From a virus (taxonomy: Duplodnaviria; Heunggongvirae; Uroviricota; Caudoviricetes): 6,219 nt of DNA. Within the stretch, counting starts at the first letter, position 1; the number at the start of each line of letters is the position of its first letter. The stretch lies in IMG/VR virus record IMGVR_UViG_2740892369_000021. One strand, given 5' to 3'. Positions 1 to 6,219 of this stretch are shown here, one piece after another. The translations under genes were made by a program, and so were the position numbers. Below the pieces are notes generated by a model, which made no database searches, was not told the DNA's origin, and saw nothing but the letters and a program-made list of their open reading frames with translations.

Positions 1-295
1 AAATAGCCCAGCTATTGCCGCCCTGCAATCCCGCATTACGCGTGGCAGACTCTGCATGTTCCATTACCTGCTCGGTATCCTGACCACTACGCCAGGCGCA
101 GATACCAATGTGGATCATATCGTCGCGATCGAGCATTTTATTGTTCGGCAAGGTATCGACGGCTTTGATTAACTGACCGGCGATGCTCTCTGCCTCTTTT
201 AACGTCCGGTGCGCGGGAATTTTTTCTCTGCGTGAGAGGGGGGGCGGTGTCCGGAGCGATCGTTTTTTTCGCCGGATGATCCCCCCCGGGGCGGG
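1..295 (-). CDS. Partial ORF running off the window start; distal part of a degenerate GGDEF-like domain; start not identifiable; may be host gene fragment
   Basis: Minus-strand frame is open from 295 to 1 with no stop. Translation ...IPAHRTLKEAESIAGQLIKAVDTLPNNKMLDRDDMIHIGICAWRSGQDTEQVMEHAESATRNAGLQGGNSWAI resembles the last third of a GGDEF domain (IGI.. block, then AE.A....GGN where canonical domains have AD.ALY.AK..GRN). No ATG with a Shine-Dalgarno in the window; the bounding in-frame stop at 296-298 is the HNH stop. Plus-strand frame 2 is also open over 2..170, so the strand call is tentative. Confidence 0.3.
238..287. repeat. Homopolymer-rich imperfect inverted repeat: G7 (238-244), T7 (263-269), C7 (281-287), with inner arms TCCGG (250-254) / CCGGA (272-276)
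   Basis: Read directly from sequence. G7 and C7 can pair around the central T7. Lies immediately 3' of the HNH stop. Confidence 0.8.
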
Positions 296-661
296 TCACA
301 GTCCGATGATATCGTCTGCCCTGCCATGACCTCCGGACACCTCCGGCAGCGTCGGGTCCGGCATACCACCCGCCGCTTCACGAGCAGACTTTTGTCGATG
401 GCATTCGGTGCAGAGCGTCCAGAGATTCGTCTCCTCATTACCACCACCGAACTGAAGTGCAATGCGGTGATCGAGTTCACTGTCACAGAGGTCAACCACA
501 CGACCACAGAGACAGCACTGCCCGGCATCCCTCAGCCAGATATGACGCTTGAGGGAAACCCGGGCACTGCCACTGACACGACGCTGTTCCCCCTTCAGAA
601 TATTCACCCGTCGGGTATTCAGTGTTTTGATTCTGCTCTGGAGTGTACGAAGCTCAGCCAT
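296..661 (-). CDS. HNH endonuclease (phage packaging-associated type)
   Basis: 121-aa ORF with HNH signature CCLCGRVVDLCDSELDHRIALQFGGGNEETNLWTLCTECHRQK (Cys pair, DH, N, CxxCH). SD-like GGGGA 8 nt upstream of ATG at 661. Confidence 0.85.
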   Translation of the reverse strand: MAELRTLQSRIKTLNTRRVNILKGEQRRVSGSARVSLKRHIWLRDAGQCCLCGRVVDLCDSELDHRIALQFGGGNEETNLWTLCTECHRQKSAREAAGGMPDPTLPEVSGGHGRADDIIGL

Positions 662-702
662 GTAAAATCCCCGTCATATAACTTGTCACCAGAGGAAAGA
701 AA

Positions 703-903
703 ATGTCATCGAAAAACCGGACCCGCAGAACCACAACCCGCAATATCCGTTTCCCCAATCACATAATTGAACAAATCAACATAGCCCTTGAGCATAAAGG
801 GTCCGGTAACTTTTCAGCGTGGGTTATTGAAGCCTGCAGGAGAAGGCTGGCAACAGATGCAACGCATCTGCGCCCGGCCAGCATGACAAATAACGAGAAA
901 TGA
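703..903 (+). CDS. Small basic ribbon-helix-helix-like DNA-binding protein (66 aa); possibly the small prophage protein family found beside terminase genes
   Basis: Strong RBS GAGGAA 6-7 nt before ATG 703. Basic N-tail (SKNRTRRTTTR), predicted beta strand RNIRFP, helix, GSGN turn, helix FSAWVIEACRRRL matching the RHH helix-B pattern (S..I..A). Only convincing plus-strand gene in the window. The family assignment is from memory only. Confidence 0.55.
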   Translation: MSSKNRTRRTTTRNIRFPNHIIEQINIALEHKGSGNFSAWVIEACRRRLATDATHLRPASMTNNEK

Positions 904-1034
904 ACGTTCGGTTACAGGAGCAGGTACCCACTGTCCTCCAACAATATTTCATCTTCATATCCGACGGAACAAGACTTACCCTGCCGGGATGTACAGAATA
1001 ACAACAGAGTGATAATTAATTTCTGATGAAATAA

Positions 1035-1361
1035 TCAGGGTGCAGAAGGACTAAAGATAAACGTTTTCTTCACGCCTTTACACGGCCTGTCCTTCTCAAA
1101 TCGCCATTTTGCCATCGCCTTTACAACCTGCTCATCAAACAAATGGTGCGGCTCTGAACGGATAAACTCAATTCGGGTGACAGTACCATCAGCACCAATA
1201 TCAAACTTCACATCAACCCGTCCCTTTATATAATTTGCCGCTGCATAGGCCGGATATTGTGGTAATGCCTTAACCAACTGTCGGGGCATATCTGTTTTAT
1301 GTTGCGTACAGCCCATAACCAGAGAAGACAACAAAATAATTAACGGAAGATTTCTTTTCAT
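1035..1361 (-). CDS. Lipoprotein consisting of a TonB C-terminal domain (TonB_C-like), likely phage moron
   Basis: Signal peptide with lipobox MKRNLPLIILLSSLVMGC, then PQYPAYAAANYIKGRVDVKFDIGADGTVTRIEFIRSEPHHLFDEQVVKAMAKWRF, which aligns with E. coli TonB C-terminus [55 protein letters not shown]. Start chosen at ATG 1361 (SD-like GGGAA upstream); the ORF track begins at GTG 1376 and an alternative ATG is at 1367. Confidence 0.7.
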   Translation of the reverse strand: MKRNLPLIILLSSLVMGCTQHKTDMPRQLVKALPQYPAYAAANYIKGRVDVKFDIGADGTVTRIEFIRSEPHHLFDEQVVKAMAKWRFEKDRPCKGVKKTFIFSPSAP

Positions 1362-1381
1362 TTTCATTCCCGGCACAGATA

Positions 1382-1398
1382 AGAATAAGTCTTATTCT
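1382..1398. promoter_or_regulatory. 17-bp palindrome AGAATAAGTCTTATTCT (8-bp arms), operator-like, 20-37 bp upstream of the lipoprotein start; Fur-box-like
   Basis: Perfect inverted repeat read from sequence. Overlaps a candidate minus-strand -10 (TAGAAT, plus 1394-1399) with TTGATG -35 (plus 1419-1424, 19-bp spacer). Plus 1378-1396 GATAAGAATAAGTCTTATT matches the 19-bp Fur consensus GATAATGATAATCATTATC at 13/19. Confidence 0.4.
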
Positions 1399-1665
1399 AA
1401 CAATGCCACCCTGTCGGTCATCAATCCTCTGCTTAATGGCAACGACAATTATCCGACTTAAATCACAAATCAGACACATGACATCACAGAGCTTGCGAGG
1501 TAACACATCGTCCGGTTTCTTCCACCATCGCACCGGACCAGCGACCATGAGGGACAACGCCGCGCTCCGTTAACGCGGTAAACCCCGGTGTGTATCGTTT
1601 TTGATTATCCCGCACACTCTCGTAGAGGAGTCTCCCTGTCGGGCTGCGGTCTCTGTTAATGCGGG

Positions 1666-1698
1666 GATACGGCGACGATACGGCGACGATACGGCGCA
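1666..1698. repeat. Tandem 11-bp direct repeat, about 3 copies (GATACGGCGAC x2, GATACGGCGCA)
   Basis: Read directly. Starts 8 bp 3' of the Rha-family gene stop, inside a 330-bp non-coding gap. The 11-bp period equals one helical turn. Confidence 0.75.
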
Positions 1699-1706
1699 TG
1701 GCTATG

Positions 1707-2258
1707 TCAGGCTGAAATGCCTTTATCAAATCCGGGTAACGCAATCTGCCCCTGCTGCTCCAGCCTGTCCAGCCTTGCCAGCAACTGAGGCTTCTTCACC
1801 CTGCCCCAGCGATTGAGCAAACGACCTGACATACTGGCGACATCTTTCTCTTTCATGTACTCCAGCATTACAGCGTTGCGCTCCGCCTCCAGATTCGCCA
1901 GACCTTGCTGAATAAGCTCAGCCATCCAGTTGAAAGCCTGAATGTACGCTTCCTTAAAGGTCATAGCAGCTTTCCCCGTAAAACCAAATACCAACATCGT
2001 CCAACCGTCTTTTGTCATTCGATATATGGGCTGGGGTTTACCGTTCTGTAACTCATTGTTTTCATAGCAAAGCGCAAAATTGCGCTCTGCAAATTCTTTT
2101 GAGCATTGTTGAACAACGGCTCTTGTTTTCCGCAATACATCTTTGTGTTCTTTGCCAAATGCTACGGCAACCTTTCGGGTATCCGTCACCGGCTCGTTGC
2201 CTGTCACAAAAACAAGATCGCGGAAATCAATACCGTTAACAATCGTCGGATAGTTCAT
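1707..2258 (-). CDS. Rha-family phage regulatory protein
   Basis: N-terminal block VTDTRKVAVAFGKEHKDVLRK and KPQPIYRMTKDGWTMLVFGFTGKAAMTFKEAYIQAFNWM fit the Phage_pRha signature (T.SR.VA..FGK.H.nVLR ... mt.dGf..Lvmgf.g..a..fkeayi..Fn.m). SD-like AAAGG 9 nt before ATG 2258. Confidence 0.75.
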   Translation of the reverse strand: MNYPTIVNGIDFRDLVFVTGNEPVTDTRKVAVAFGKEHKDVLRKTRAVVQQCSKEFAERNFALCYENNELQNGKPQPIYRMTKDGWTMLVFGFTGKAAMTFKEAYIQAFNWMAELIQQGLANLEAERNAVMLEYMKEKDVASMSGRLLNRWGRVKKPQLLARLDRLEQQGQIALPGFDKGISA

Positions 2259-2267
2259 AGCGTCTTA

Positions 2268-2359
2268 CCTTTCAGAAAATTGAGCCTGTCTCACAGAAAA
2301 GCCGCCCCGAGATGGTCGCCACCATATACGACAGTTCTCAGGCTCAACTTTCTGAAAGG
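2268..2359. promoter_or_regulatory. Long inverted repeat: 21-bp arms (2268-2288 and 2339-2359, 20/21 complementary) around a 50-bp spacer; 3' arm of the minus-strand RNA contains the Rha gene Shine-Dalgarno
   Basis: Arm 1 CCTTTCAGAAAATTGAGCCTG; reverse complement of arm 2 is CCTTTCAGAAAGTTGAGCCTG. On the minus transcript the stem ends 9 nt before the Rha ATG and includes GAAAGG. Confidence 0.6.
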
Positions 2360-2369
2360 CTCGGGGATG

Positions 2370-2391
2370 TGATATGCGCGTGAGATGCGCG
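2370..2391. repeat. Tandem 11-bp direct repeat x2 (TGATATGCGCG / TGAGATGCGCG)
   Basis: Read directly; sits between the Rz terminator and the Rha-gene inverted repeat. Confidence 0.6.
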
Positions 2392-2407
2392 ATGAAATTC
2401 AGATATG

Positions 2408-2430
2408 AAAAAGCCAGCGATTAAGCTGGC
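2408..2430 (-). terminator. Intrinsic terminator 4 nt after Rz stop
   Basis: Minus strand: GCCAGC-ttaatc-GCTGGC (perfect 6-bp stem) followed by TTTTTCAT. Confidence 0.55.
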
Positions 2431-2434
2431 TCTG

Positions 2435-2893
2435 TTAATTCAGGCACTGAGTGCGGATATATTCCTGCGCCCCTTCCAGTTGCTTCTGCATTGTCATCAA
2501 CCGCTCTCTGAGGGTGAAATAATCCCGTTCAGCGGTGTCTGCCAGTCGGGGGCCGGTTGCATTATCCATTCCGGAGGTGCCGGTGGCTTCACGCACGGTA
2601 CCGGAGCAGGTGGCGTTGATCCGCAGGCGCTTACGACCAGCGGCAACATCAGCACGCAGAGTTTCATTTTCAGCTCTCGCATCGGCTAATTCCCTTGAGT
2701 ATCTGGCATCAAGCGCAGCAACATCACGCTGGCGCTGCTGCATGTCAGTAATGGTTGCGTTTGCCAGCTCCAGCTCTCTGGCTTTTTTATCGCGCTGCGC
2801 TTTGTAGGTGATGGCGTTATCACGGTAATGGTCTGTTGCCAGCCACAGCGCACTACAGACCACCAGCAGAATAACGGTAAACGCGGAAAGCAT
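2435..2893 (-). CDS. Rz: Rz i-spanin (inner-membrane spanin subunit), 152 aa
   Basis: MLSAFTVILLVVCSALWLATDHYRDNAITYKAQRDKKARELELANATITDMQQRQRDVAALDARYSRELADA...DTAERDYFTLRERLMTMQKQLEGAQEYIRTQCLN closely parallels lambda Rz (AVNHYRDNAITYKAQRD..., PRLADTAERDYFTLRERLITMQKQLEG). Start placed at ATG 2893, not the ORF-track start at 3001. Confidence 0.9.
   Translation of the reverse strand: MLSAFTVILLVVCSALWLATDHYRDNAITYKAQRDKKARELELANATITDMQQRQRDVAALDARYSRELADARAENETLRADVAAGRKRLRINATCSGTVREATGTSGMDNATGPRLADTAERDYFTLRERLMTMQKQLEGAQEYIRTQCLN
2497..2682 (-). CDS. Rz1: Rz1 o-spanin (outer-membrane lipoprotein), embedded in Rz in another frame
   Basis: MRELKMKLCVLMLPLVVSACGSTPPAPVPCVKPPAPPEWIMQPAPDWQTPLNGIISPSESG parallels lambda Rz1 (lipobox, Pro-rich, ...CVKPPPPPAWIMQPPPDWQTPLNGIISPSERG). 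Confidence 0.85.
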   Translation of the reverse strand: MRELKMKLCVLMLPLVVSACGSTPPAPVPCVKPPAPPEWIMQPAPDWQTPLNGIISPSESG

Positions 2894-2904
2894 TCGGTTT
2901 ATGC

Positions 2905-3036
2905 TCACCCCACCAGCCCTGCCGAAGTCAACGCCATCCAGGTTATGGAAAGAAAAAGAGCAACCAGCATTAGTGAAAATGAAATACCGACGATTACACA
3001 AAGGCCCTTCGCCAGCATTATGAGTTTGTCTGACAT
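2905..3036 (-). CDS. Small hydrophobic ORF, 43 aa (MSDKLIMLAKGLCVIVGISFSLMLVALFLSITWMALTSAGLVG), predicted membrane peptide
   Basis: Below the ORF-track size cutoff; found by hand translation. Strong SD AAGAGG 5 nt before ATG 3036. Start lies 2 nt after the stop of the preceding mini-ORF; stop lies 11 nt before the Rz ATG. Confidence 0.35.
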   Translation of the reverse strand: MSDKLIMLAKGLCVIVGISFSLMLVALFLSITWMALTSAGLVG

Positions 3037-3038
3037 CT

Positions 3039-3128
3039 TTACCTCTTAATAGCAGTAATTAACCGGGCAACCACCCATAAAAACGGAATCAGCCAGACCA
3101 GCAAAAATTTCCAGTCCATTTTTATCAT
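3039..3128 (-). CDS. Small hydrophobic ORF, 26-29 aa (MIKMDWKFLLVWLIPFLWVVARLITAIKR), predicted single-TM peptide
   Basis: In-frame ATGs at 3128 and 3119 (M-I-K-M). ATG 3128 is 2 nt after the antirepressor TGA stop, so translational coupling is possible. No good SD of its own. Confidence 0.3.
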   Translation of the reverse strand: MIKMDWKFLLVWLIPFLWVVARLITAIKR

Positions 3129-3130
3129 CT

Positions 3131-3826
3131 TCATGCTGCGGTAGCTCTCCATGCAGCAAGCAGACCAGCAATCCACTGAACACCTTTTGGGGTGAATTTA
3201 ACCTGCGTAAAAGCATGACCATTGCCCGCCTCGCCCGTTTTCACGCTAAACCGCCCCGCATCCAGGTGATGCGAGTAAGGCGTCATTTTTCCAGCGAGGC
3301 GATACATTATTCCGTTCTCCAACAAAAACAGCCGGAAATCGGTTTCTTTGATACCGAGTAACTTAGCAACTTCCCGGAATCCCATCAGACCAGATGCTTC
3401 AACATAGTTATCAACAAATTCAGCCTTCGGCGCTGCTATTGCCAGTTGATTTTCCAGCACTGCTTTCTGTTCAGCCAGTTTTGCCGCAAATCGCAACGCC
3501 TCAGGTAAAGTCCGGGGGATCTGAATACCATGCATCGCTTTGAGTCTTGCCAGCACAGAACGACGAACGGCCTTTGACTCCCTCATGCCAACGAGCATCA
3601 TCTGGTCAAAATCCAGATCATAGTATGCCGTTCTTGTCTGGTTATTGTTTAACCGGAATTTTTTTCCGGTTCCATCAAGCTCTAGCTCATCCTCAATTTT
3701 TGCAAGAAACTTACGCGGTTCATGAGGGACTTCTCCGGCTTCTGCCCGGGCTGGATTAATAATGTTATTCAGAAAATCCAGACTACTCATGGATATTTCA
3801 TGATCGACAGAAATCATCTCTTTCAT
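3131..3826 (-). CDS. Phage antirepressor, KilA-C/ANT-domain protein, inserted between R and Rz
   Basis: C-terminal block FREVAKLLGIKETDFRLFLLENGIMYRLAGKMTPYSHHLDAGRFSVKTGEAGNGHAFTQVKFTPKGVQWIAGLL fits the ANT/KilA-C antirepressor pattern. SD AAGGA 7 nt before ATG 3826. Confidence 0.7.
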   Translation of the reverse strand: MKEMISVDHEISMSSLDFLNNIINPARAEAGEVPHEPRKFLAKIEDELELDGTGKKFRLNNNQTRTAYYDLDFDQMMLVGMRESKAVRRSVLARLKAMHGIQIPRTLPEALRFAAKLAEQKAVLENQLAIAAPKAEFVDNYVEASGLMGFREVAKLLGIKETDFRLFLLENGIMYRLAGKMTPYSHHLDAGRFSVKTGEAGNGHAFTQVKFTPKGVQWIAGLLAAWRATAA

Positions 3827-3960
3827 GGTTGATTCCTTTTAGTGATGAACCCTGCGCACAGGAATAACCAGCCCAAAGAGGGTTAACCAGACCACTGCCG
3901 GTTATCCACCAGGGCTCATCCTGAAAGGTTCTTTGGTTTATTTACGCTTGTGCGAAGCGC

Positions 3961-3989
3961 AGAAATGACAAAGGCACCATTACGGTGCC
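3961..3989 (-). terminator. Intrinsic terminator between R and the antirepressor gene
   Basis: Minus strand: GGCACC-gtaat-GGTGCC (perfect 6-bp stem, extendable) followed by TTTGTCATTTCT. Confidence 0.5.
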
Positions 3990-4099
3990 TCTGCGTGAAA
4001 TAATCTGCCTAACTTTATTCACTTACATTTTGCCAGTTCGCAGGATTTCGTGTTATCCGCCCGCGCTGGCCAACGTCATTTTTCAGCAAAATATTCTGC

Positions 4100-4633
4100 T
4101 TATCTGTCGATTCCCCAGCACGCCAGCGCGCTCTCCTGGTCACGACGGGATACCTGACCATAACAGTTATTTGAGCGAATACGGCAGTCTCTGCCACCGT
4201 CCTTAATCCACCAGCGAATCGCTTCGCAGGCACCTTTTCGATCTCCTGCATTAATTCGTTTATAAAACGTCGACGGGAAACACTTACCTGGGCCAATGTT
4301 GTAAGGACAGAATGACGCAATACCCGCTTTCTGGGGTTCAGTCAGTGGCACTTTGATGTTTTTCTCCACCCATGCCAGCGCCTTATCACGCTCAATGGCG
4401 TTAACCTGGTCGCATTTCCCCTTCGACAGCTTCATGCCAGGAATAACAGGCTTACCATCCACCCGGGTGGCTCCACGGCAGATGGTCCAGATACCCGCAC
4501 CATCACGGTATGCCGTGGTGTGGTTGCCTTCCTTTTCATCCAGAAACTGGTCGAGGATTTCAGGCGCAGAAGCACCTGCGGCAATCAGCGCCAGAACGGC
4601 AGCCGATAAACCATAGCGGAGTTTCCTGCTCAT
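4100..4633 (-). CDS. R: SAR endolysin (T4-type lysozyme, GH24) with N-terminal signal-anchor-release domain
   Basis: N-terminal weakly hydrophobic Ala/Gly-rich segment YGLSAAVLALIAAGASA; catalytic triad spacing E-x8-D-x5-T in EKEGNHTTAYRDGAGIWT; overall likeness to phage 21 R. Starts 4 nt after the S stop. Confidence 0.9.
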   Translation of the reverse strand: MSRKLRYGLSAAVLALIAAGASAPEILDQFLDEKEGNHTTAYRDGAGIWTICRGATRVDGKPVIPGMKLSKGKCDQVNAIERDKALAWVEKNIKVPLTEPQKAGIASFCPYNIGPGKCFPSTFYKRINAGDRKGACEAIRWWIKDGGRDCRIRSNNCYGQVSRRDQESALACWGIDR

Positions 4634-4637
4634 CAGC

Positions 4638-4853
4638 TTACTCTCCCCGTGCCGCCTTACGCCTGTCCTCTCTGATTTTGAAATACAGGTTCGTCAGGTA
4701 CGTCAGCAGACCAAACAGCAGACTCCCCAGCACGCCTATTGCCGCCCACTGAGACGGGGAAACCCTGTCCAGCAACTGCAGGAACCAGTAGCCCGTTCCC
4801 ACCGCTGACGTGGTGTATGACACACCTGTTGTGATTTTTTCCATCTGGTTCAT
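4638..4853 (-). CDS. S: Class II holin / pinholin, S21 type, with dual-start motif (Met1 and Met4)
   Basis: [71 protein letters not shown] is near-identical in its C-terminal two-thirds to phage 21 S (…[51 protein letters not shown]). SD GGAGG 7 nt upstream. Confidence 0.9.
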
Positions 4854-4888
4854 ACCCCGCCTCCCGCAATCCGGAAGCTCACAACATG

Positions 4889-4918
4889 AAAAAGGCCAGC
4901 AGCTGTTTACTGATGGCC
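4889..4918 (-). terminator. Intrinsic terminator upstream of S
   Basis: Minus strand: GGCCATCAG-taaacag-CTGCTGGCC (9-bp stem, one mismatch) followed by TTTTTCATG. Confidence 0.55.
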
Positions 4919-4929
4919 CTGACTCCCCG

Positions 4930-5202
4930 TTACAGCATCATGACCGATTCGGGTTGAGGTTCAGTCGCATCGGCGACCGGTGATTCAGGCTGAACTTCAC
5001 CGCTCTCTGCGGTGGTATCTCCCGCTTCAGTCGGTGGCTCTGCCTGTACACCAAGCAGCTCATCCAGAATGGCATCAACCTCTGCATCAAGACGCGCCTC
5101 AAGATTCTGGCGGAGTTTTTGTTTCAGTGCGCTCAGGACTTCTTCAGAGCGCAGGACTTCCTTCACTGCCTCTGCAGTGACCAGGGATGTAATTTCTGAC
5201 AT
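4930..5202 (-). CDS. Hypothetical acidic protein, 90 aa (amphipathic helical N-half, Pro/Glu-rich C-tail)
   Basis: ATG at 5202 preferred over the ORF-track GTG at 5376 because a separate 59-aa ORF in another frame occupies 5243..5422. Sequence [51 protein letters not shown]... Weak SD. Confidence 0.45.
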
Positions 5203-5242
5203 GGGATTTTCTCGTCGAAAGGTGTGATTAAGAAAGTTGCCG

Positions 5243-5422
5243 CTAAATGAGCGGCTCTTCGGGTTTGCTTCCGGCTGACTGACTGGCGCTGATTTTCTCA
5301 GCGGCCCTTTTGTCAATCTGTCTGCGCCAGAAGTCACGCATGGCCCGGTATCCACCCGAAAGGAGATACAGCACACAGACCACCGTACAGAAGTACAGCA
5401 TTAACTGGTTCAGAAATGTCAT
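5243..5422 (-). CDS. Small membrane protein, 59 aa (N-terminal TM helix, basic then acidic tail)
   Basis: Hand-translated: MTFLNQLMLYFCTVVCVLYLLSGGYRAMRDFWRRQIDKRAAEKISASQSAGSKPEEPLI. SD-like GGAAAG upstream of ATG 5422. One residue under the apparent ORF-track size cutoff. Confidence 0.45.
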   Translation of the reverse strand: MTFLNQLMLYFCTVVCVLYLLSGGYRAMRDFWRRQIDKRAAEKISASQSAGSKPEEPLI

Positions 5423-5440
5423 AATTTCTTTCCGTTATTG

Positions 5441-5469
5441 TTGACAATAAGAACTGTTTTCATTAAAAA
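5441..5469 (+). promoter_or_regulatory. Candidate sigma70 promoter on the plus strand (-35 TTGACA 5441-5446, 17-bp spacer, -10 TAAAAA 5464-5469)
   Basis: Perfect -35 hexamer at ideal spacing; the -10 is weak and lacks the terminal T. Points away from the 59-aa ORF toward the plus-strand terminator. Confidence 0.3.
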
Positions 5470-5475
5470 ACCAGA

Positions 5476-5556
5476 GTACGAAAGTATCGTTCCTTTATTT
5501 TTTCTCCATAGGTATCACCACCGCCAGCGTCCATTCCTGTCGCTGGCGGTTTTTTT
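5476..5556 (+). ncRNA. Candidate small RNA of about 80 nt defined by the promoter and terminator pair; antisense to the region upstream of the 59-aa ORF
   Basis: No plus-strand ORF with a start codon lies between promoter and terminator. The terminator is orphan, on the strand opposite to every surrounding gene. Confidence 0.3.
5520..5556 (+). terminator. Strong intrinsic terminator on the plus strand
   Basis: ACCGCCAGCG-tccattcctgt-CGCTGGCGGT (perfect 9-10 bp GC-rich stem) followed by TTTTTTT (5550-5556). On the minus strand the same hairpin has no U-run after it. Confidence 0.65.
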
Positions 5557-5557
5557 A

Positions 5558-6219
5558 TCATGCCGCAGTGTCTGTGCTGTTCACTTCCACCACAATGCTG
5601 TCTATCAGTACCGGGTAAGTCGCATTCCTGGTAATGTCTGTCACATGCAGTTTATCCGCCGCAAATGCACTGACCGGTGACTGCGTCAGCGTGAACGGTG
5701 TGCCATCCTGACCATCAATAACCGGCGTCACCTGAAGGCTGTTATTCCCGGCAAAGCGGAAAGACAGCGTATGCCATTCGTTATCAAATGCGCCAAAGGT
5801 TCCCAGTTTCAGGTTGTTTGTCGCCACTTTCGCATTGTGGTACATCACATTCAGGTCTTTTGCATCTGTCTGGATGTAGAACGCTGCCAGCAGGTTATTC
5901 CCCCCGTCTCCGGTCAGGGCAACGCCCTGTGGCAGTGAAGATACCGGCCAGTAAAACGCCATAACATACTGGTTCGCAGCCAGCGCTCCCGAAACCTTAA
6001 AGCGGCAGCGAATCTGCCCCCCTTTCTGTAACAGAGCCGCACCGTTGCCCGCGGCGTACTCCAGCACCCAGCTGCTTTTACCGGCTTCCTTGGTCAGCTT
6101 CACTGCCTTACCTCCGGTTCCCTCCGCATCGCTGACCACTTCTGCCCTGCCGCCACTGGCTGACCATCCCTGTACTTTCAGGCTTCCCTCTGACTCGCTG
6201 GCAAGGTAAGAGAGCAGTG
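5558..6219 (-). CDS. C-terminal ~220 aa of a larger protein running off the window end; possible beta-sandwich/lectin-like domain of a cargo protein
   Basis: Minus frame is open from 6219 to the TGA at 5558-5560 (the ORF-track start at 6139 is an internal GTG). Sequence ...WHTLSFRFAGNNSLQVTPVIDGQDGTPFTLTQSPVSAF... Its position upstream of S is where Stx-type phages carry a large nanS-p-like esterase; that identity is a guess from position and composition. Confidence 0.6.
   Translation of the reverse strand, partial: LLSYLASESEGSLKVQGWSASGGRAEVVSDAEGTGGKAVKLTKEAGKSSWVLEYAAGNGAALLQKGGQIRCRFKVSGALAANQYVMAFYWPVSSLPQGVALTGDGGNNLLAAFYIQTDAKDLNVMYHNAKVATNNLKLGTFGAFDNEWHTLSFRFAGNNSLQVTPVIDGQDGTPFTLTQSPVSAFAADKLHVTDITRNATYPVLIDSIVVEVNSTDTAA

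Follow-up and report, generated by a model that had tools for sequence, protein, structure and literature searches.

A breakpoint beside the cos site of a lambdoid prophage joins phage DNA to an internal fragment of csrD

Results

The open frame below the HNH gene

The window, by which we mean the whole stretch of 6,219 nucleotides that was analysed, crosses the late region of an Stx-type lambdoid prophage with genes for holin, lysozyme, antirepressor, Rz, Rha, TonB-like and HNH proteins. Below the HNH gene, the minus strand contains an open frame that begins with the HNH stop codon, TGA at 298-296, and continues through 98 stop-free codons to base 2 at the edge of the window. The other two minus-strand frames contain several stops each and are closed. 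The translation of the open frame, PAPGGIIRRKKRSLRTPPPLSRREKIPAHRTLKEAESIAGQLIKAVDTLPNNKMLDRDDMIHIGICAWRSGQDTEQVMEHAESATRNAGLQGGNSWAI, ends with ...AESATRNAGLQGGNSWAI. The first start codons encountered in this frame are TTG (151-149) and ATG (136-134); a Shine-Dalgarno-like sequence is absent upstream of both. The original prediction was thus accurate in describing a frame that is open to the window edge, is separated from HNH by a stop, and has no start codon or ribosome-binding site of its own. It had also taken the frame for the distal part of a GGDEF domain, and the Pfam GGDEF profile (PF00990) indeed matched the translated frame at profile positions 95-160 of 161, with 30.5 bits against a cut-off of 23.8. 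The best match in NCBIfam was the CsrD equivalog (NF008281, positions 312-380), for which the fragment scored 103.7 bits and thereby falls below the curated cut-off of 663 bits that applies to the full-length protein.

The frame is built from two unrelated parts, namely 82 nt of non-coding phage DNA (295-214) and an internal piece of csrD (213-1). The GGDEF-like sequence therefore does not directly abut the HNH stop, as had been stated, but is set off from it by the 82 nt of phage intergenic DNA. The long open stretch is the reading frame of csrD itself, which by chance is in phase with the HNH stop codon, and the unbroken frame across the joint is fortuitous, resulting from a one-in-three phase match and 27 G+C-rich codons that happen to be free of stops. 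The minus-strand open frame marks a breakpoint within window 1-295 and is no new gene. The coordinates of all features are listed in Table 1.

Table 1. Features at the lower end of the window and domains of the intact CsrD protein.
Feature	Position	Strand	Basis
HNH endonuclease gene (121 aa; TGA stop at 298-296)	296..661	-	ORF list; Pfam HNH (PF01844), 29.7 bits
Start of the phage HNH-to-terS intergenic region, first 82 nt	214..295	-	100% identity to Stx1a phages and O26/O103/O121 prophages
cos cohesive-end sequence CGCCCCCCCT, 3' overhang	237..246	-	PhageTerm result for phage Lys8385Vzw (PMC7946995)
Joint, phage ...AAAAAATTCCCG / CGCACCGGACG... csrD	213..214	.	Base-by-base walk against both parents
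csrD internal fragment, nt 941-1153, codons 314-384 (RTLKEAES...GGNSWAI)	1..213	-	Nucleotide identity; Pfam/NCBIfam
First in-frame ATG (CsrD Met338), no SD-like sequence upstream	134..136	-	Frame reading
Plus-strand open frame, antisense shadow of csrD, no gene	2..172	+	Wholly within the csrD-identical stretch; sense strand is minus
GAPES4 domain	CsrD residues 34-130		Pfam
GGDEF domain	CsrD residues 224-380		Pfam
EAL domain	CsrD residues 403-628		Pfam

The position immediately after HNH is where terS, the gene for the small terminase subunit, sits in HK97-type packaging modules, which is the point in favour of reading the frame as terS or as an unrecognised late gene of the phage. However, no match to Terminase_2 (PF03592) was obtained in window 2-295, although terS of an intact relative does match this profile, and no Pfam profile other than GGDEF matched the translated frame. 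The terS gene of the relatives starts 288 nt past the HNH stop, in sequence beyond the breakpoint and outside the window. Furthermore, window 213-1 matches no phage record, but lies within csrD in every complete E. coli chromosome (5,426/5,426). We consider it extremely improbable that the frame is a phage gene, or that the plus-strand frame, which runs antisense to csrD and had been named as the possible real gene, is one. As it stands, the result bears mainly on annotation, in which neither a gene nor a GGDEF protein nor a terminase should be assigned to the frame in window 1-295. The site is better labelled as a pseudogene fragment of csrD at a prophage breakpoint, pending validation at the level of reads.

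The csrD fragment

Window 213-1 matched all 5,426 complete E. coli genomes over its full 213 nt, inside the gene annotated as "csrD: RNase E specificity factor CsrD", and it is identical at 213/213 nt (100%) to csrD of many E. coli, in the csrD frame. The intact gene (also named yhdA) has 646 codons. Compared with CsrD (NF008281), the window shares the nucleotide identity, the reading frame and the end of the GGDEF domain, and differs in that only codons 314-384 are present. These codons represent the last ~40% of a degenerate GGDEF domain, in sense orientation, and run off the left edge of the window toward the EAL domain. Phage DNA stands in place of the first 313 codons, which encode the GAPES4 sensor, the membrane segments and most of the GGDEF domain, and no usable start codon is left for the 3' part of csrD in the window. 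The gene normally lies in the order acuI - csrD - mreB. On the acuI side, the HNH gene and cos region of the phage take the place of acuI and of the 5' part of csrD, and the mreB side falls outside the window.

The position of the GGDEF signature in intact CsrD is occupied by HRSDF (residues 304-308), which is located six residues upstream of the break, with AALLP in between. A GG(D/E)EF active-site signature is absent from the window, and the signature position is on the far side of the breakpoint. The motif AESATRNAGLQGGN, which the original prediction had quoted as a degenerate C-terminal motif, corresponds to the C-terminal helix region of the domain. Nor is the disrupted gene a c-di-GMP signalling gene, as had been suggested. 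CsrD of E. coli is devoid of the catalytic residues and neither synthesises nor degrades c-di-GMP, nor does it respond to this molecule. The RNase E-dependent turnover of CsrB and CsrC requires CsrD, whose EAL domain is bound by EIIA-Glc (PMC5027483).

The sequence of window 213-1 was found once per genome, except for one genome with a second copy, located on a record classed as a plasmid. Megabase-sized "plasmid" records in PLSDB also contain csrD. The plasmid-classed records with csrD probably represent chromosomes with a wrong label or very large captures of chromosomal DNA.

The phage part and the packaging module

When the minus strand of window 700-1 was compared by BLAST with the phage collection (50,697 records), matches were confined to positions 700-214. 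This segment of 487 nt is 100% identical to four Stx1a-converting phages, and its identity to further phages, among them BP-4795 and 2851, is 92-96%. The whole phage part of the window (214-6219; 6,006 nt) is shared at 100% identity by prophages in several STEC genomes of serogroups O26, O103 and O121, and differs from the RM8385 prophage by two mismatches. The genes in the RM8385 prophage are ordered nanS-p-type esterase, DUF1378, DUF826, holin, lysozyme, antirepressor, lysis protein, Rha, TonB-like, YlcI (on the opposite strand) and HNH, followed by a 288-nt spacer and then by terS, terL, capsid and portal genes. The distance of 288 nt between the HNH stop and the start of terS was the same in every intact relative examined. 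In RefSeq prophages and Stx phages with 100% identity, the HNH gene carries the annotation HNH endonuclease.

PhageTerm analysis of Lys8385Vzw, a phage induced from the RM8385 strain, gave the cos sequence CGCCCCCCCT with a 3' overhang (PMC7946995). The GenBank record of this phage (MT225100) ends with ...CCGCCCCCCCT at window 237 and restarts with CTCACGCAGAGAAAAAATTCCCGTTTCAGGG (CTCACGCAGAG...). On the basis of the PhageTerm result and the record ends, we place cos at window 246-237. The Stx1a lambdoid phages and prophages of O26/O103/O121 STEC, such as Lys8385Vzw (MT225100) and Stx1a_NIID112183 (LC744181), likewise have HNH followed by this cos sequence. They run on through a set of GTTAAC repeats into terS, terL and the head genes, whereas the window stops 23 bp past the cos cut. 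The intact relatives continue after window 214 with TTTCAGGGCAGTTAAC... toward terS, and the GTTAAC repeats, which lie downstream of the breakpoint, are all missing from the window. Of the packaging module HNH-cos-terS/terL, the window thus contains HNH and the cos 10-mer, and lacks terS and terL. The arrangement of an HNH gene beside cos and terminase is of the HK97 type, for which Kala et al. (2014, PNAS 111:6022) reportedly described cos cleavage by HNH and terminase. That study is cited in PMC12315714.

The GTTAAC-centred motif occurs in four or five copies before terS in the intact relatives (for example in the region 6488-6693 of locus L001), and the copies are probably binding sites of the small terminase subunit. 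In an otherwise similar prophage of one genome (GCA_001264175.1; locus L022, 3020-5366), the HNH-terS spacer is interrupted by an IS66-family element with TnpA, TnpB and a DDE transposase, ~75 nt downstream of the position that corresponds to the break in the window.

The original prediction of a truncated remnant without packaging genes holds for the sequence as read. The window is compatible with genes that were lost, with genes that were moved elsewhere, and with an assembly artefact.

Structure and uniqueness of the joint

A base-by-base walk placed the end of the phage identity at window 214 and the start of the csrD identity at 213, which is nt 941 of csrD. The joint reads ...CAGAGAAAAAATTCCCG on the phage side and CGCACCGGACGTTAAAAGAGG... 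on the csrD side. It is blunt, with 0 nt of microhomology and no filler, and lies on the terS side of the cos cut, at a distance of 23 bp and before the GTTAAC repeats. The best local homology between the two parental breakpoints was a decamer with 9/10 matches 45 nt away, which is no better than a reverse-complement control. Comparison with uninterrupted loci, as had been proposed, showed that csrD is split at nt 940/941 and that HNH-cos-terS is continuous in the phage relatives. No intrinsic terminator was predicted between HNH and the joint, and the right end of the window shows no clear repeat boundary.

The joint was not recovered in any of the collections searched. A 39-mer across it was absent from IMG/VR, the GTDB-representative genomes and the JGI metagenome contigs, and no BLAST match spanned it in the 5,426 complete E. 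coli genomes, the 50,697 phage records or the PLSDB plasmids. With window 700-1 as a 700-nt query, no place in the 5,426 genomes was covered to 80%. The joint was also absent from every locus that was fetched, and an exact look-up of three possible edge-truncated products ending in ...GGNSWAI found none of them in the protein collection. The look-up of the HNH protein, which does not reach short contigs, returned only intact HNH-terS neighbourhoods and one IS66 insertion.

Two further origins of the joint were examined and rejected. It is not the end of mature virion DNA, as the window contains the sealed cos site and another 23 bp, and the virion ends correspond to window 237/236 or 247/246. 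It was not produced at a restriction site or by proximity ligation either: the CGCG at the joint arises only through the fusion, as both parents lack it, and the break contains neither GATC nor CCGG.

The original prediction of a prophage-host junction in a GGDEF/EAL gene stands in so far as the phage homology ends 82 nt past the HNH stop and csrD is cut in the middle of a domain, from codon 314. The part that did not stand is the natural boundary, that is, insertion in or beside the gene by ordinary lysogeny at an attachment site inside csrD, with 214/213 as attL or attR. Phage DNA beside a host gene fits the general picture of lysogeny, and Mu-like phages truly do insert into csrD, as described below. 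However, the window phage is of the lambdoid type, and its break falls between HNH and terS, in the intergenic region that contains cos, at a great distance from the integrase and attP. In relatives of the phage, the sequence is continuous here and leads into terS: a query spanning the joint point was covered to 80% or more by 82 of the 93 matching phage records, and among the 10 places listed for the HNH protein, all 10 continue past the joint point, one of them with the IS66 element ~75 nt further on. None of the 5,426 complete genomes contains a prophage at this position in csrD, and there is no duplicated or shared core sequence at the joint. Lysogeny is for these reasons a very improbable source of the junction. 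The joint is a one-off breakpoint and no normal prophage boundary. Its phage and csrD components are both already known, and nothing but the position of the break beside cos is out of the ordinary.

Other disruptions of csrD

A 307-aa EAL-only product that starts at Met338 (MLDRDD...SV) is present in the protein collection and comes from csrD loci that are broken in other ways. The places examined contained small in-situ indels or frameshifts, scaffold gaps, a Mu-like insertion and a contig end formed by an inverted duplicate. The lambdoid phage of the window was found at none of them.

The small indels (loci L007-L014 and L029-L036) fall in a short stretch of csrD, nt ~885-925, that closely precedes the HRSDF position. 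At the direct repeat CTGGCGC-ACTG-CTGGCGC, a duplication and deletions of 11 nt were found, and other alleles have lost 14 or 4 nt or are changed by 1 nt within a short run. Their clustering is at least partly a selection effect, since only frameshifts near Met338 give the 307-aa call, and some of the 1-nt changes may be long-read errors.

The Mu-like insertion (L028, 1-1440; GCA_053188185.1, JBRTGP010000002.1) places the end of a prophage with GemA and Mor genes in csrD at nt ~953, which is 12 nt from the breakpoint in the window, and leaves the same EAL-only 3' part of the gene. It differs from the window in that it represents a true phage end generated by transposition, in a phage 96.5% identical to Escherichia phage PhiKM, whereas the lambdoid phage of the window is broken internally. 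Weaker matches to the Mu-like phage reach within about 50-480 nt of the ends of their records. The inverted duplicate (L037, 1-370; GCA_018490935.1, JAHBJJ010000096.1) is a contig end that consists of an inverted copy of the adjacent csrD, with a palindromic join at nt ~891. The most likely source of this join is an artefact of assembly or amplification, and artefactual csrD junctions therefore exist in public data.

Origin of the joint

Two unrelated DNA ends were joined without homology. We lean slightly toward a real illegitimate recombination that is private to one strain, and hold it to be about an even prospect. The lack of an att site and of homology suggests that such an event would have been a non-homologous end joining of two unrelated breaks, in which a phage end was fused bluntly to the middle of the chromosomal csrD gene, at codon 314 and in the same orientation. 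One route could be the illegitimate insertion of circular phage DNA that was opened at the joint point; another could be an inversion of which one end lay beside cos in the prophage and the other in csrD. Either route would also yield the reciprocal joint, csrD ...GCTGCGCTGTTAC / TTTCAGGGCAGTTAACATG... terS (also written as ...GTTAC / TTTCAGGG). A simple deletion is implausible, because accB and accC, which are essential, are located just upstream of csrD (~1-3 kb). A real event therefore needs an insertion or an inversion, both of which are rarer.

The break is placed 23 bp from cos, whereas positions that close make up only ~0.1% of a ~50-kb phage in which a random break could fall, which hints at a real event. 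In addition, there is no shared k-mer at the joint from which a de Bruijn assembler could have built it out of repeats, and other natural isolates also have a disrupted csrD, among them the one with the Mu-like prophage 12 nt from the breakpoint. On the other hand, the uniqueness of the joint across all collections searched leaves a real event with no independent confirmation, and both halves are 100% identical to common alleles and show no sign of age. A blunt joint with zero microhomology is moreover what in-vitro ligation chimeras give. In E. coli, end joining in vivo more commonly relies on short homologies of a few bases.

The same three features, together with the artefactual csrD contig ends in public assemblies such as the inverted duplicate described above, favour a chimera made outside the cell, in which library ligation or assembly joined a piece of prophage or replicating phage to a piece of csrD, both of them intact in the organism. 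The csrD tail of 213 nt is also about one read length and would look like the tip of a chimeric read, provided that the window is the whole contig. Yet its right end is at no obvious repeat boundary, so the window may be an arbitrary cut, which would remove the argument from the short tail. A random chimera would also fall anywhere in the phage, yet the joint is 23 bp from the cos cut, and it is off the virion DNA ends, so that ligation of mature ends offers no explanation. Assemblers normally discard single-read junctions and short tips, which likewise counts against a chimera. On this evidence, an origin outside the cell is a serious contender, at somewhat under an even chance. What probability remains beyond a real rearrangement and a chimera goes to other causes.

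Truncated (cryptic) lambdoid prophages resemble the window in that the late region ends abruptly on host DNA without an att site. However, the classical examples are old, shared within lineages and diverged, whereas the joint in the window is unique, with both sides 100% identical to current alleles. It is therefore either very recent or not biological.

A more specific form of the real rearrangement would link the break to cos. The break would then have been made or provoked by an HNH-terminase complex bound at cos in an unexcised or replicating prophage, and joined to a break in csrD independently of homology. We regard this as unlikely. If it were true, a packaging nuclease would have caused a chromosomal rearrangement and knocked out the global regulator CsrD, with effects on CsrB/CsrC and thereby CsrA, in a lineage of Shiga-toxin E. 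coli. A real break so close to the cos cut (23 bp) would lend a little support to the idea that packaging nucleases can damage the host chromosome, but a single unconfirmed joint cannot carry that claim.

Predicted consequences of a real joint

If the rearrangement is real, CsrD loses its N-terminal 313 residues and with them the membrane and periplasmic sensor as well as the initial 60% of the GGDEF domain, in which HRSDF is located. As no start codon with a ribosome-binding site remains, the csrD allele should be null. Judging from published work, CsrB and CsrC would be stabilised in such a strain, and CsrA would be more strongly sequestered and its activity lowered (PMC5027483). The resulting shift in the CsrA regulon would affect carbon storage, biofilm and motility and, in EHEC, the control of virulence genes. 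For the phage, the separation of cos from the sequences on the terS side suggests that this prophage copy could not be packaged. Late phage transcription could run into the 3' part of csrD toward mreB, since no terminator is predicted between HNH and the joint.

Other features of the phage part

The cos region contains homopolymers of 7 G (281-287) and 7 C (238-244), and the run length varies among prophages, with 9 G in the prophage that carries the IS66 element (L022). A gene of the YlcI/YnfO family (DUF3950; 66 aa, window 703-903, plus strand) is located directly upstream of HNH, opposite to the late genes, and has the same place in all relatives seen. The right end of the window (5558-6219, minus strand) cuts through the nanS-p-type esterase gene, and the listed ORF 6139-5558 begins after an in-frame stop within the window. 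The gene is labelled "SASA family carbohydrate esterase" in some genomes and "DUF6645 domain-containing protein, internal stop" in others.
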